A DNA stretch of 64,000 nucleotides. Source: Bacteroidota bacterium (GTDB lineage: Bacteria > Bacteroidota > Ignavibacteria > UBA10030). Shown here piece by piece: positions 45,231-51,720 of the stretch; position 1 is the stretch's first letter; each line of letters starts with the position of its first letter. The position numbers and the translations under genes were made by a program. Below the pieces are notes generated by a model. It was not told the DNA's origin and searched no databases. It saw only the letters and a program-made list of their open reading frames with translations. The stretch lies in contig JBEKAY010000012.1 in assembly GCA_050015675.1 (NCBI GenBank), positions 6,952-70,951 of the forward strand. Direction: 5' to 3'.

Positions 45231-45263
45231 AAAAAACCCGTCGAGAAATCCTCGACGGGTTTT
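45231..45263. terminator. Bidirectional terminator between maf and csp
   Basis: AAAAAACCCGTCGAG-aaatc-CTCGACGGGTTTT. Confidence 0.88.
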
Positions 45264-45280: not shown

Positions 45281-45484
45281 TTAAGCAGGCTTTGCAACTT
45301 TTACCGCCTGTAATCCTTTCGGACCCTGTTCAACTTCGAATTCTACTTTATCGCCTTCGTTGAGCGTTTTGTAGCCGTCTCCGTTGATGGACTTGTAATG
45401 CACGAATATGTCTTCACCGCTTTCTCGTTTGATGAAGCCATATCCTTTTGTATTATTGAACCACTTTACTGTACCCTGTTCCAT
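45281..45484 (-). CDS. Cold-shock protein (CspA family)
   Basis: GTVKWFN..KGYGFI, DIFVH, GPKGLQA. Confidence 0.97.
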
Positions 45485-45738: not shown

Positions 45739-48090
45739 TTACTCTTCATCTGCCAGCCAGATGTTATAGTCCTCGGATTCAGATTTGGTTTCTGCTGTTT
45801 CCGGTGCAATTTTTCGAGAAAGGATATGGATGCCGTCGTCGGAAAAACCGAACATTTCATCCAAAGTGAAAATTCGTTCAAATGCCGCGGGTTCAAAAAA
45901 CTCCCGAAATTTGCCGGCAGTTTCGTGCAAACGAGCAAGATAATAGGCGGTGTTTTCGTCCGGTTGATATGGGTTCCATTCTTCGACTAAACGAGATGAA
46001 CGAGTAAGCGTGATACCCGCATCGCTTCCTGTAAAGTAATAAGAAATTTTTGAATTAGCTTTGACGAAGAGGCTTGAACGTACTATGGCTTCCATTGCTG
46101 GCGAAGTTGTGATTTGACCAGAAAGCACTTCTTTTTGGTAAGTTTCTGTGTCCATGCGGACAATATCAGTACGGCAGAAGTCTCTCGGGGTCCATTTGTG
46201 CTGCATTACCTGCGTATATGCTGTGGCATACGCATGGTGCATTCTCTTTAAGTCGTTTGTCAGAAGGCATTCGATCATCCGCTGAATAAATATTCTAAGG
46301 AAACGTTCCATCCCGCGAGAGATAAGGTTATTTCCTTTGATAAGAACATTGTTGTTCTGATCCAGCAAGGCGTAATTATTTTTCCGATAGCTGAACATTT
46401 GCTTGTAGCGATGCGATAAGACAAGCGTTGTTCCTTCTAGCAATGTATTTGAAAGTCGTTCAATAAAATTCTTCTGATTTGATTCACCGATAATATTGTT
46501 GGGGGACAAAAGAAAAAAACCATCACCATCAGATTGGATGATAGCAGCGTTGAAGAGTTCAATCTGGCGCAGAATTTCTTTCAGAATCTCACGACTCGCG
46601 GCCAGGACAACTTCGGCTTGTTCAGGATCGTTATACAATCCGCGCGCAGAACCGAGGTAGAGATGAAATGAATCAATAAGACGCTTAACCGCTTTCAATT
46701 GGTGGACCGAATCTTGGGATTGTAGTGTTTCGGTGTTCGTCGGATCGGATGTATCTTGTTGCAAAGCAGAGAGGCGTGTAAGAAGTGGAAGAAAAACATT
46801 TAGTTCATCTGTCTTTGGCTTGATATTCTGACGGAGTAAAATGGAAGAGTGAATTCCCGCTAATTCAACATACATAACATCGGAGAAAACGCCGGTGTGG
46901 AATACCTCCGATGGAATTGTCATTGAGCGGGAATTATCGTTCGCTCTGGGGACTGAATGCCGTTGACGGACGTATTCTCTTAACATTAGAGATTCGATTC
47001 GTGAAGCTGCACTGAGCTGGGTTAGCATTCGATAGTTGAATGGACACATCTGTGCAAGATAGAACAGCGGCGGCGCGAGATGGTTATAAAGATCGCGTGC
47101 AATGCGTACATTGCGTAGAGATTGATCTAAAATACTCTCCGGTCGATGATTCCATTCCTCAGATATATCTTGTGTGGGAATAGATTTCTCCGTTCCAATT
47201 GAAATTTCAAAATGTTTTGCCAATGAAGTGAGCGTAAATGATTGTTCAATTCTTTTAGTGTCGATTTCCGTTTCTGCCAATGTTGACAAGTCAACGAGAT
47301 GTCTGCCGAAAACATCAAAAGAAAACCATTCACTTTCTCCGGTACTGGCAGCGCTATATCCGGGCGGTGTTCGCATGTCGCTGCCATCTCGACCTATCGC
47401 CAGCGGGATTTGTGAACGTTCGCAGGCACGGCTGAGCGCTGGCAAAATCGTTCCAAACAAGTCGTATCCTTCTATGACATCGGGATCTATTTTGTTGATG
47501 CGCTGGATACAACGCTCCAATAATGTTCGCTCATTATGCTTTTGAGTGTTGAAGGTATATTCGCTTTCATCACTGGCGGCGAGTGTGACAACGAGAATTT
47601 TTTCTTCTGAACTTTTTCTCTTCTGTTTTTTCCCTACTGCCGGTGCGAATTGGACATCCATATGAAGCCGCACGAGTTCTTCGAATTTCATTCCTTTGAA
47701 TAATGTAATACCGGATTGCAGAAGAAACTGGCGCACTGCGTCCGCGCGGACAAGAATTTCTTTAAATTCCTGATATGATGAAACGCGCGGTGAATGATTT
47801 TTGTTATATTGATGTAGAATAAAATGTACTGCTTCCCACATCTCACTCCAGCGTGTGAAGGCAGCGATGTAACGATAAAAATTCCCGCCGGCAAGCTCCT
47901 TCAGCCAGATTTTTTTGGGGAAGTCTTTGATCAGCGATTCATCGGACAGAAAAAAGAAAGGGAAGAATTCTACATCTTGATGTAGAATCTTCCCCTCAAC
48001 TCGTTTGTATAGTCTGATTGTCTGATCGTTCAGCTGTTGGACAGCGACGATGCGCTCTTCGGTATTATATCCATAGAGCAGCTTGTCCAT
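45739..48090 (-). CDS. Family B DNA polymerase homolog with degenerate catalytic motifs
   Basis: PolB architecture (DPDVIEGY, IGRDGS, GRHLVD, MLREY, KNNYALL, IKG..SRG) but motifs read MDVQ, ELAGIHSSI, KRLIDSFHLYLG, QSDGDG. Confidence 0.85.
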   Translation of the reverse strand: MDKLLYGYNTEERIVAVQQLNDQTIRLYKRVEGKILHQDVEFFPFFFLSDESLIKDFPKKIWLKELAGGNFYRYIAAFTRWSEMWEAVHFILHQYNKNHSPRVSSYQEFKEILVRADAVRQFLLQSGITLFKGMKFEELVRLHMDVQFAPAVGKKQKRKSSEEKILVVTLAASDESEYTFNTQKHNERTLLERCIQRINKIDPDVIEGYDLFGTILPALSRACERSQIPLAIGRDGSDMRTPPGYSAASTGESEWFSFDVFGRHLVDLSTLAETEIDTKRIEQSFTLTSLAKHFEISIGTEKSIPTQDISEEWNHRPESILDQSLRNVRIARDLYNHLAPPLFYLAQMCPFNYRMLTQLSAASRIESLMLREYVRQRHSVPRANDNSRSMTIPSEVFHTGVFSDVMYVELAGIHSSILLRQNIKPKTDELNVFLPLLTRLSALQQDTSDPTNTETLQSQDSVHQLKAVKRLIDSFHLYLGSARGLYNDPEQAEVVLAASREILKEILRQIELFNAAIIQSDGDGFFLLSPNNIIGESNQKNFIERLSNTLLEGTTLVLSHRYKQMFSYRKNNYALLDQNNNVLIKGNNLISRGMERFLRIFIQRMIECLLTNDLKRMHHAYATAYTQVMQHKWTPRDFCRTDIVRMDTETYQKEVLSGQITTSPAMEAIVRSSLFVKANSKISYYFTGSDAGITLTRSSRLVEEWNPYQPDENTAYYLARLHETAGKFREFFEPAAFERIFTLDEMFGFSDDGIHILSRKIAPETAETKSESEDYNIWLADEE

Positions 48091-48093
48091 TCA

Positions 48094-48870
48094 TCATTTC
48101 TTAGGCTTATCTAGATTCATATTCATAAACGGCCTCAATAAATCGATAGGCACGGGGAAGATTGTCGTGGAATTATTTTCCGTTGCGATTTCACGAAGGG
48201 TTTGCAGGTAACGCAATGTAAGTGCGCTTGGTTGTTCACTGAGGACTTTTGCTGCATCGGACAAGCGTTGTGATGCCTGGAATTCTCCTTCTGCTGCGAT
48301 AACTTTCGAGCGGCGTTCGCGTTCTGCTTCCGCCTGTTTTGCCATTGCTCGCTGCATCTCTTGCGGTAAATCGATCTGCTTCACTTCGACATTGGAAACC
48401 TTGACACCCCAGGGCTCGGTATGGCTGTCGATAATTTGCTGGAGTTTCTGGTTGATCTTGTCGCGTTGCGAAAGAAGATCATCTAATTCAGACTGTCCCA
48501 ACACGCTTCGCAAAGTTGTTTGTGAAAGCTGGGAGGTTGCGAATAAATAATTTTCAACCGAGACAACGGCTTTTTCGGGCTGCATCACGCGGAAGTACAC
48601 AACTGCGTTTACTTTCAATGAGACGTTATCCTGTGTGATGATATCCTGCGGAGGAACATCCATCACAACTGTTCGCAGACTCACTCTTACCATTCTATCA
48701 ATACCGGGCCATAACCAGACAATCCCGGGTCCCTTTACTCCTAACAACCGTCCTAAGCGGAATATGACACCGCGATCATATTCACGTAAAATTTTAATTG
48801 AATTGACTGCGAGAAGAAAAAAGGCAAATGCTAAAAGAAAAATATATATAAATCCTGGTTCCATAATCAC
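48094..48870 (-). CDS. Slipin/stomatin (SPFH) family protein
   Basis: [46 protein letters not shown]. Confidence 0.96.
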
Positions 48871-50159
48871 TCCTTAGATGTTGTGGATGGTTCGACTAAC
48901 AATTTTAATCCGTTGATTTTAACAACTCGTACGCGTTTACCTTTTTGAATTGTCCCTGACAATGATTCTGCATTCCAAATCTCACCATGTATACGAACGA
49001 CACCTTCCGGCTTCAGTGTCTCGAGAACATCCCCCGTCTCTCCATTCAATCCTTCAATGCCTGTTGTTGGTTTTCGGCGTTGAGCTTTAATTCCTAATCC
49101 GAGGATAACAACAAAAAAGAATGTGGTTATAATGACCGATGCAATGATAACCGACCAGGATAATTCCACAAATTCAAGAACACTTGATGTGCGAATAAGC
49201 ATTATTGATCCTATAAAAGTTGAAACAGCCCCGCCGATTGCCAGCATACCGTGGCTAATTATTTTTATCTCTAAGAGGAAGAGAATGATTCCAAAGATGA
49301 TAAGGGCGAGTCCGGCATAGTTGATTGGGAGAGTATGCATGGAATAAAACGCAAGCACGAGACTGATGACACCCACGATACCGGGAAAGATAGAACCCGG
49401 ATTATACAACTCGAGTATTAAACCGATAGTGCCGAGTTGAAAAAGGATGAGGGCAATATTCGGATTGCTTAAGAGATCCAATATTTTTTCTGCCCATCCC
49501 ATCTCCATCTGTTCGATCCGCGCGCCTTTTGTATGGAGCGTTGTTGTGCCGGTGATTGTCTCAACTTGTTTGCCATCGATTTGCGTAAGCAACTCATCGA
49601 CATTCTTCGCAATAAGATCGATAACATTTGTGTCAAGCGCTTCAGTTTCTGTAATGGCTTGGCTTTTACGGACAGCATCTTCTGCCCACTTCAGGTTACG
49701 GTTTCGTTTTTTGGCGATTGTGCGAATAAATGCCGCGGCATCATTGGTGACTTTTTCTCCCATCACCGAATCCATTTTCCCTTCCATTTCAACAGGATGC
49801 GCCGCTCCGATATTTGTCCCGGGCGCCATTGCAGCAATGTGTGCTGCCATTGTAATAAAAACACCTGCTGAACCCGCATGCGCTCCGCCTGGTGCAACAT
49901 AGACCACGACAGGAATTTTGGATTCAAGAATTGCACTCACAATGATACGTGTAGATGTAAGCAATCCGCCGGGTGTGTTAAGTTGGATGATGAGACACTC
50001 CGCGTTTTTTTCAGCAGATCTTTCGATGCCGCGTTCGATTAAAGCCGATGATGCTGGATTAATAGCGCCATCAATTTTCAGCAGAACAACGTGTTGCGAA
50101 AAGATGACAGTGGGAAGGATAATAATGAAAATTGAAAGTATGAATAAACGGTGGAGCAC
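48867..50159 (-). CDS. nfeD: NfeD family membrane-bound serine protease
   Basis: [22 protein letters not shown]-terminal OB domain GEIWNA. GTG at 50159 follows GGAGGA; classic nfeD-slipin pair. Confidence 0.93.
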
Positions 50160-50348
50160 TTTAATATTCCTCCATCCGGTGCAGGTGTTTGTCAAACTTG
50201 CGTTTTTCGAAGAAGATATATACCGCTGCCGGAACATACTATAAGGGAAGACTTTTTTCAATCTCCTATTCGTTAGAAAGATAAGCAAAGAGCGGTCAAA
50301 TAGCAAAAGGCTTTCATTTACTATGGTAATTGTTTAAATTCGTTACAC

Positions 50349-51481: not shown

Positions 51482-51491
51482 GTGTCTTTTG

Positions 51492-51578
51492 CGGAGAGAG
51501 TGGGATTCGAACCCACGGTACCCTTACGGATACACTACCTTTCCAGGGTAGCCAATTCAACCACTCTTGCATCTCTCC
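51492..51578 (-). tRNA. tRNA-Ser (GGA)
   Basis: Minus strand GGAGAGA...CTACC-CTGGAAA-GGTAG, long variable arm, GGTTCGAATCC...TCTCTCCG. Confidence 0.96.
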
Positions 51579-51633
51579 GGTTCATTAAATATCCTAATCT
51601 ATTATCTCATTTCCAAATAATAGCTTGAACAAG

Positions 51634-51720
51634 CGGAGAGGGAGGGATTCGAACCCTCGATAACCTTGCGGCTATTCCGGTTTTCGAGACCGGTCGATTC
51701 AACCACTCTCGCACCTCTCC
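51634..51720 (-). tRNA. tRNA-Ser (CGA)
   Basis: Minus strand GGAGAGG...CCGGT-CTCGAAA-ACCGG, long variable arm, GGTTCGAATCC...CCTCTCCG. Confidence 0.96.

Follow-up and report, generated by a model that had tools for sequence, protein, structure and literature searches.

What is selected in a DNA polymerase homolog whose catalytic motifs have been lost? The question is raised by polB*, a gene on the minus strand of a 64,000-nucleotide stretch (hereafter the window) of contig JBEKAY010000012.1, from a Bacteroidota bacterium of the Ignavibacteria (assembly GCA_050015675.1). Its product, P0001, is a homolog of the G3-type family-B polymerases (PolBs) in which both the exonuclease (exo) and the polymerase (pol) motifs are substituted. 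The explanation that we favor, with a probability of roughly 0.6, is that P0001 is a G3 ortholog that has lost catalysis and kept binding to DNA and to a partner. That the protein is both selected and non-catalytic is highly probable; the particular mechanism of an adaptor on DNA and the sliding clamp is put forward tentatively, at somewhat under even odds. What is new is an inactivated lineage within a known PolB group that was published as having conserved active sites.

Fold, active-site motifs and family of P0001

The initial annotation of the window described polB* as an intact open reading frame (ORF) with a PolB layout, and a frame check, phmmer, AlphaFold2 (AF2) and Foldseek now agree on this point. 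The frame is uninterrupted, with an ATG start, zero internal stops and 783 codons for amino acids. When searched against the PDB with phmmer, P0001 aligned over residues 163-733 with archaeal PolBs at E 5e-19. The AF2 model, computed from a 110-sequence alignment, has a mean predicted local distance difference test (pLDDT) score of 87.1 and a predicted template modelling (pTM) score of 0.82, low confidence being seen only in residues 764-783, the final 20 (pLDDT <50), and in a few loops. An overlay of such a model on PolB had been suggested by the initial annotation; in Foldseek, the entire chain aligns to Thermococcus and Pyrococcus PolB with template modelling (TM) scores up to 0.73/0.77 (2xhb_A), in the PolB domain order of N-terminal domain, exonuclease, palm, fingers and thumb. 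As modelled, P0001 has a complete family-B polymerase fold. The Pfam definition of a family-B polymerase does not extend to this protein, neither PF00136 nor PF03104 matching it at E<=1 in a Pfam search, and the NCBIfam Pol II models match far under their cut-off. A match between the palm region and Pfam Csm1_B (17 bits vs a cut-off of 26.4) was taken as generic palm likeness and rejected as a sign of any relation to Cas10.

Motifs were placed by HMMER alignment to KOD polymerase together with a family alignment, and all of the named exo and pol motifs are substituted in the manner first annotated, at positions that were correct to within a few bases (Table 1). The DEDDy exonuclease residues are incomplete across ExoI, ExoII and ExoIII; on the polymerase side, motif A carries Glu and motif B is degraded, while the second Asp of motif C is present. 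The Glu that precedes motif C elsewhere in the family is Gln in P0001 (IQSDGDG).

The retained Asp residues of motif C had been raised as a caveat, and at the level of the clade this caveat is answered. We counted residues in 59 pol-dead sequences among 113 homologs of >=740 amino acids in the family alignment. The position of the motif A Asp is occupied by E in 49, K in 6, T in 2 and S in 2, and the first Asp of motif C is kept in 53 of the 59. At the second position, which in PolBs is a metal ligand, the residues are D (23), N (8), Q (8), R (8), E (6), H (3), G (2) and V (1), so that the Asp is replaced in 36 sequences; the closest species read DGN, DGE, DGQ and DDR. Further, the Lys and Asn of motif B and the steric-gate Tyr are variable inside the genus clade. 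Scored in 30-residue windows, conservation around motif B is 0.57 in the dead clade vs 0.68 in active forms, among the lowest values in the dead clade, where only the ExoIII window is lower (0.55). Because the second Asp is often replaced and motif B is poorly conserved across the clade, selection there appears not to act on polymerase chemistry, and we infer from these substitutions that the dead-clade protein no longer synthesises or edits DNA.

The family to which P0001 belongs can be recognised through its more distant members. A homolog search gave 163 proteins; among the best 120, those at 54-89% identity lack a precomputed Pfam domain, except P0043, and at 35-45% identity PF00136 is present, sometimes joined by PF03104. 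In the 113-sequence alignment the motifs of distant members are canonical (LDIETY, NFDLPY, YALDDV, DVESLY, KILINSFYGYLGY and EVDTDG). A Glu right before DTD is described in PMC7544198 as a synapomorphy of bacterial G3, a group akin to the N-terminal half of Pol epsilon. E-V-DTDG is read in the syntenic orthologs of P0001 and in the relatives at 35-45% identity, P0001 itself having Gln. Since distant members show this Glu, we assign the family to G3 (Pol-epsilon-N-like), an assignment made via published motif descriptions and not reference sequences. Orthology to the intact members is indicated by the shared position between slipin and csp in the order nfeD-slipin-polB-csp, and by the nesting of P0001 among intact forms in the tree.

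G3 as published (Kazlauskas et al. 2020; Timinskas et al. 2026) has the same architecture and length as P0001 and is common in the Ignavibacteria/Chlorobi neighbourhood, the lineage of P0001; the C-terminal peptide of P0001 sits where a clamp motif is reported for G3. It is presented in PMC12926913 as the second most abundant bacterial PolB group, experimentally unstudied, and as a canonical high-fidelity, clamp-binding enzyme with conserved active sites. The P0001 clade differs in having lost both sites, genus-wide and in several other lineages. Our full-text searches for inactivated or pseudo bacterial PolBs returned no report of an inactivated G3, although the supplements of two Nucleic Acids Research (NAR) surveys could hold subgroup data; the account of G1-G3 in PMC7544198, as far as its definitions of these groups go, does not mention one. 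One published PolB survey, by its own description, covered ~3000 complete genomes. The initial remark that no characterised bacterial case is known calls for some qualification: according to PMC7544198, homologs of PolB2 in bacteria (G2) had at one time been labelled inactivated but are today considered active. Dead-clade members carry public names such as ‘DNA polymerase I’, ‘DNA polymerase, archaea type’ and ‘DNA polymerase elongation subunit (family B)’, which are probably misleading about function.

Orthologs and selection

We searched the genome of the window and 40 relatives, 41 genomes in total. P0001, which is single-copy in its own genome, has matches in 37 of them, including all 15 of the same genus (61-88% identity) and all nine other members of the family (34-44%). 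Every one of the 13 genus members read, window included, is both exo-dead and pol-dead, and 11 of these 13 have a clean open frame of 780-784 amino acids at 61-88% identity. The two others are G007, which has an in-frame stop discussed below, and G001, in which an apparent slipin-polB fusion (a 1021-amino-acid frame) was rejected as an artefact of contig Ns, read as XX. Elsewhere in the family, five genera (G017, G020, G022, G023 and G024) are exo-dead but pol-intact, and G016, G018 and G019 have other degenerate polymerase motifs. At the level of the order, nine of 12 loci hold exo+pol+ orthologs, G033 is exo-/pol+, G040 is exo-/pol-, and in G025 the gene is split into two adjacent ORFs covering residues 3-490 and 495-782 (G025:C1:50859-53209, L044).

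A quick IQ-TREE phylogeny of 30 orthologs, from which G025 (split), G007 (stop) and G001 (Ns) were left out, groups G040 with an intact sister, away from the family clade, and the pol-dead state needs at least two changes on this tree. The branches to the dead forms are long (genus stem 0.49, G016 1.68, G018 1.58, G040 1.82). In a library of 1.84 billion representative proteins, 1218 matched at E<=0.001; we scored 104 listed representatives of 680-900 amino acids that were absent from the first alignment, and found 24 to be pol-dead (21 exo-/pol- and 3 exo+/pol-), the others comprising 50 exo+pol+ and 30 exo-/pol+ proteins. In the dead clade, >50 representatives of metagenomic clusters have full-length sequences. 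A genome collection yielded 394 stretches encoding a relative, of which 80 loci were kept; their records are titled Ignavibacteriota/Ignavibacteriae, Bacteroidota, Chlorobiaceae, Kryptonia and similar metagenome-assembled genomes (MAGs).

A side observation concerns proofreading. A DnaQ-like domain (PF00929) was found in 25 of 25 family genomes, where G3 is exo-dead. Outside the family, a search for it found nothing in G026, G027, G032, G034, G035 and G040, six genomes of which five carry an exo+ G3. The genomes are few and non-independent, and G040, exo-/pol- yet with no PF00929 found, is a counter-example to compensation by DnaQ. A link to the missing Pol III proofreader of the Chlorobi, as noted in PMC12926913, is possible.

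The ratio of nonsynonymous to synonymous substitution rates (dN/dS) was estimated pairwise (NG86) among 11 genus orthologs, G001 and G007 being dropped for their Ns and TGA, respectively. The summary covers the 17 of 55 pairs with 0.05<dS<1, some of the others having failed (nan or saturated) through imperfect start-codon choice or dS >1. The median for polB* is 0.133 (range 0.099-0.183), beside 0.136 for nfeD, 0.114 for maf, 0.104 for csp and 0.042 for slipin. By domain, the polB* medians are 0.061 (N-terminal), 0.144 (exonuclease), 0.149 (palm and fingers) and 0.117 (thumb and tail). Amino-acid divergence of polB relative to the mean of its neighbours rises from 1.25 in exo+pol+ members to 1.74 in exo-/pol+ family members and 1.96 in the dead genus, a rough comparison, as these are p-distances over differing depths. 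Constraint on the sequence thus appears to have been relaxed stepwise while still being strong. The initial annotation had proposed a retained pseudo-polymerase, with scaffold, decoy or sensor as putative roles, and had named intact motifs in close relatives together with dN/dS near 1 as the signature of simple decay. Within the genus the opposite was found, eroded motifs in 13 of 13 orthologs and a low median dN/dS, and with its frame intact polB* does not have the marks of a pseudogene.

Retained segments and proposed role

The best conserved part of the dead clade is the N-terminal domain (majority-residue frequency 0.85-0.88), whose consensus is mostly common with that of active forms. The thumb is also kept in the family alignment, as is a KxY-type motif, RKNNY, which we take to be a primer-terminus contact motif. 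At the extreme C terminus, following a variable acidic linker of low AF2 confidence, lies a short peptide with the pattern [FY]xIWL. The C terminus of every genus member reads E[DE]Y[GNS]IWL[AS]xxE, and among 217 relatives classified, 74 of the 83 pol-dead sequences have IW[LI] within their last 18 residues. Distant relatives end there in QLSLL, QLGLF, QLRLF, QPSLF, resembling the QxxLF clamp motif, and a motif for binding the beta clamp is ascribed to G3 in PMC12926913. The conservation of the tail suggests a partner-binding peptide, whose most plausible partner would be the beta sliding clamp, given the QxxLF-like ends of other G3 relatives at this position. A complex prediction with the genome's own DnaN (L050:1501-2613) and residues 730-783 of P0001 scored 0.03, which weighs neither way on clamp binding.

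We postulate the following sequence of events. The ancestor in the order would have been a complete enzyme (DIE / NFD / YxxDD; DVESLY; KILINSFYGYLG; EVDTDG) already bearing a C-terminal xIWL tail. The exonuclease site was lost in the family of the window, and the polymerase site was lost as well on the stem leading to the genus, with a separate loss in one or more further lineages. P0001 is the vertically inherited, single-copy ortholog in a lineage whose public relatives are titled Ignavibacteriota/Bacteroidota MAGs. Its fold is kept whole, with purifying selection on every domain, most strongly on the N-terminal one. The protein may still bind primer-template DNA via the KxY motif and thumb and hold its partner, most plausibly the clamp, via the IWL peptide. 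During replication or repair it would occupy clamp-loaded DNA ends, or serve as an adaptor there, without catalysis. It would be expressed from an nfeD-slipin-polB(-csp) unit.

Several points weigh against this account. The genus member G007 (86% complete) has one in-frame TGA (G007:C8:276871-279223, L025); this stop and the split in G025 could be real breaks or assembly errors. The NG86 estimates are pairwise and come from non-independent species pairs, and the dead form evolves faster relative to its neighbours than the exo+pol+ form (1.96 vs 1.25). P0001 itself keeps the motif A Glu and both motif C Asps (DGD), so that residual chemistry is possible for P0001 alone. Finally, similar reasoning once led to archaeal PolB2 being mistaken for an inactive protein, as recounted in PMC7544198 and PMC11791011.

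Gene neighbourhood, alternatives and precedents

Upstream of polB* on the same strand are genes for a slipin of the SPFH (Band 7) type and for an NfeD protein, and downstream lies csp (Table 1). The 3-nucleotide gap between the slipin stop and the start of polB*, initially annotated, was read directly on the minus strand: AAG AAA TGA TGA ATG comprises the slipin stop, a second in-frame TGA and the polB* start (48088-48096), and there is no obvious Shine-Dalgarno sequence upstream of the ATG at this junction. A hairpin after csp is the only strong end candidate found for an nfeD-slipin-polB*-csp unit. A sigma-70 promoter scan gave 10 sites vs 11.6 expected from shuffles; this lineage probably uses other promoter types. 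In a search of RNA runs, only two, both peat metatranscriptomes, contain 6-7% of the words, and their contigs (90-95% identity) span the junction of slipin and polB and match some stretches of polB*; these come from relatives and may include DNA carry-over, bins without coverage carry no information, and the contigs are at most a weak hint of transcription.

Table 1. Positions of polB*, its motifs and nearby features in the window, and of the second family-B polymerase gene of the genome
Feature	Position	Strand	Remarks
polB* (P0001), G3-type family-B polymerase homolog	45739..48090	-	783 aa (amino acids); exo and pol motifs dead
ExoI (aa 144-147)	47650..47661	-	FDIE -> MDVQ; Asp kept, Glu -> Gln (DxE -> DxQ)
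ExoII (aa 209-216)	47443..47466	-	NGDNFDF -> YDLFGTIL; N..FD gone, FD Asp -> Ile
ExoIII (aa 323-327)	47107..47124	-	YxxxD -> QSLRN(V), i.e. QxxxN
Motif A (aa 409-416)	46843..46866	-	DFRSLYPS (DxxSLYPS) -> ELAGIHSS; catalytic Asp -> Glu, steric-gate Tyr -> His
Motif B (aa 469-477)	46660..46686	-	KILANSYYG (KxxxNSxYG) -> KRLIDSFHL; degraded
Motif C (aa 520-524)	46519..46533	-	SDTDG -> SDGDG (DTD -> DGD); both Asps present
KxY-type motif RKNNY (in SYRKNNYA)	46372..46386	-	kept in dead clade; S567 and N572 nearly invariant
C-terminal tail EDYNIWLADEE	45742..45774	-	conserved [FY]xIWL peptide; candidate for binding a partner or the clamp
slipin / SPFH (Band 7) gene	48094..48870	-	stop 3 nt (nucleotides) before polB* start
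nfeD	48867..50306	-	NfeD1b_N, NfeD membrane and C-terminal domains; 4-nt overlap with slipin start
csp, cold-shock domain protein gene	45281..45484	-	254 nt downstream of polB*; syntenic in 20/20 family loci
Terminator-like hairpin, strong	45233..45263	-	14-bp (base pair) stem and T run; after csp
ORF, 72 aa	50349..50567	+	sub-threshold HSDR_N (type I restriction R subunit N terminus), 23 bits vs 25.1
Two tandem tRNA-Ser genes (GGA, CGA)	51491..51720	-	
P0122, second family-B polymerase	G000 contig C10, L046:1501-3834; L002:502-2835	+	

The order nfeD-slipin-polB-csp is found in all 20 family loci fetched, including those of the five pol-intact genera, with maf on the opposite strand in 19 and the remaining locus at a contig edge. 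Slipin is directly upstream in nine of the 12 order-level loci (not found in two, no room in one) and in 51 of 75 scorable wider loci (absent in 20, no room in four). The 51 linked loci, Chlorobiaceae-titled records included, comprise 17 pol-dead, 14 exo-/pol+ and 20 exo+pol+ members. Conservation of the gene order, which the initial annotation had proposed to check, is thus borne out, but the order is not specific to the dead form. As it is kept whatever the catalytic state, the adjacency of polymerase and stomatin appears from these loci to be ancient, inherited and independent of catalytic state, and is no feature of the dead form.

This arrangement is the basis of the alternative that survives best, in which P0001 was exapted for a task that has nothing to do with DNA synthesis and is linked to the NfeD-stomatin membrane module, its partner being membrane-associated and not the clamp; candidate tasks are the tethering of DNA or of a complex to SPFH microdomains and a part in some membrane or cold-stress response. 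The recurrence of slipin directly upstream, the 3-nucleotide spacing, the same-strand csp and the position of the only strong terminator after it all speak for such a role, repeated loss of catalysis would fit a subfamily whose function was never mainly catalytic, and an inactive PolB exapted in this way has a precedent in poxvirus F12 (PMC4304020). However, adjacency is equally seen for intact enzymes (the 20 exo+pol+ loci) and so is uninformative on the dead form, interaction does not follow from gene order alone, and in our full-text literature search no listed paper, judged by title or abstract, links NfeD/stomatin operons with a DNA polymerase. P0001 also retains its motifs for DNA contact and has a tail in the position of a clamp motif. 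We consider this alternative improbable.

Less probable again is that P0001 remains a DNA polymerase, such as one specialised in translesion synthesis, with a rearranged site built from Glu409 and Asp521/Asp523 or other acidic residues. P0001 keeps all three of these named residues, motif A Glu and the first motif C Asp are frequent among the pol-dead sequences counted above (49 and 53 of 59), all domains, palm and fingers included, are under purifying selection, and PolB2 was called inactive before it was found active, as told in PMC7544198 and PMC11791011. Against this stand the loss of the second motif C Asp in 36 of the 59, the closest species included, and the variation of the motif B Lys/Asn and steric-gate Tyr within the genus clade, with its low motif B conservation; PolB2, by the account in PMC7544198, retains exactly the second motif C Asp, without the first. 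That polB* is instead a young pseudogene whose frame is open by chance has a negligible probability: the many lost catalytic residues, the missing Pfam match, the faster divergence, the TGA of G007 and the split in G025 would fit decay, but the clean frames of 11 of the 13 genus orthologs, dN/dS of 0.10-0.18 with all domains constrained, the confident AF2 model and the >50 full-length metagenomic representatives lead us to regard it as already refuted, unless the genus sample is badly biased.

The reading of P0001 as a non-catalytic G3 ortholog can be set beside other inactive or atypical polymerases. Archaeal PolB2 and bacterial G2, labelled ‘inactivated’ in earlier descriptions (PMC2527604; PMC7544198), resemble P0001 in being full-length and conserved, with a dead exonuclease, a non-canonical motif C and other polymerases alongside. 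They differ in lacking the first motif C Asp and keeping the second, with a conserved His and a D(K/R) motif, whereas in P0001 the first is kept, the clade loses the second and there is no His. PolB2/G2 is moreover described as an active translesion synthesis enzyme encoded in an iRadA-PPB2-PolB2 operon (PMC7544198; PMC11791011), whereas P0001 follows nfeD and slipin and is next to csp; it does not qualify as a member of this group.

A second family-B polymerase, P0122, is the only protein found with PF00136 in the genome of the window (contig C10, 777 amino acids, 123 bits). Its motif A is intact (ELDFASMYPS) and its motif C (HGIIDCIW) is of the PolB2/G2 style, which PMC7544198 gives as a single Asp plus His. 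P0122 was found in 35 of the 41 genomes, and its conservation (83-90% identity among genus members) far exceeds that of polB*. The active paralog suggested at first thus exists in the same genome; a partnership with it is not indicated, since P0122 is distant from P0001 (only 25% local identity) and is found equally alongside active forms of G3. Two ORFs without family matches, 267 and 91 amino acids long, lie just upstream of P0122 on its strand and may be iRadA and PPB2, an order compatible with the bacterial iRadA-PPB2-PolB2 arrangement in PMC11791011. A DUF559 (endonuclease-like, 121 bits) gene at L046:42-491 (+) on C10 also lies just upstream of this PolB2-like locus.

The other precedents are analogies. 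The inactivated C-terminal module of Pol epsilon has a PolB fold without catalysis and a structural, partner-binding role as described in PMC7544198; it is joined to an active module and has CMG as a binding partner, whereas P0001 stands alone in a bacterium. The inactive Y-family polymerases (iPolY) of bacterial mutasomes are treated in PMC12926913. ImuB and other members of this kind are a bacterial precedent, being dead-polymerase adaptors with a clamp-binding motif, but ImuB has a Y-family fold, unlike P0001. Chordopoxvirus F12 is, in PMC4304020, a PolB derivative that is inactivated and has been exapted to a role outside replication; it is viral and highly diverged, acts in morphogenesis and is related to P0001 in sequence only at the family level. 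No ImuA- or DnaE2-type partners are present beside polB*. Such genes are the partners with which ImuB is encoded.

Beyond nfeD, the ‘decayed defence/tRNA hotspot’ of the initial annotation is weakly backed by the two tRNA-Ser genes and the 72-amino-acid HSDR_N-like ORF. A hemerythrin gene follows this ORF and precedes the tRNA genes.

A wider proposal, speculative and in our estimate unlikely as it stands, is that throughout the IWL-tailed G3 branch (of Ignavibacteria/Chlorobi type) the selected function is structural or adaptor-like and not DNA synthesis, linked to the partner of the tail and possibly also to the NfeD-stomatin module, next to which the gene has remained across distances on the scale of phyla. 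If true, this would explain why proofreading and then polymerisation were lost repeatedly while a 780-amino-acid protein stayed strongly constrained, and the branch would show several stages of a transition to a bacterial equivalent of the C-terminal module of Pol epsilon. At one syntenic position, strict orthologs form a graded series from exo+pol+ through exo-pol+ to exo-pol-, and the dead end-state is under purifying selection genus-wide and recurs in other lineages. The series flags an unexplained and very widely conserved adjacency of a DNA polymerase and an NfeD-stomatin module, offers a bacterial parallel to the cases of Pol epsilon C, ImuB and PolB2, and provides a clean system for asking what role a polymerase fold may have after catalysis is lost.

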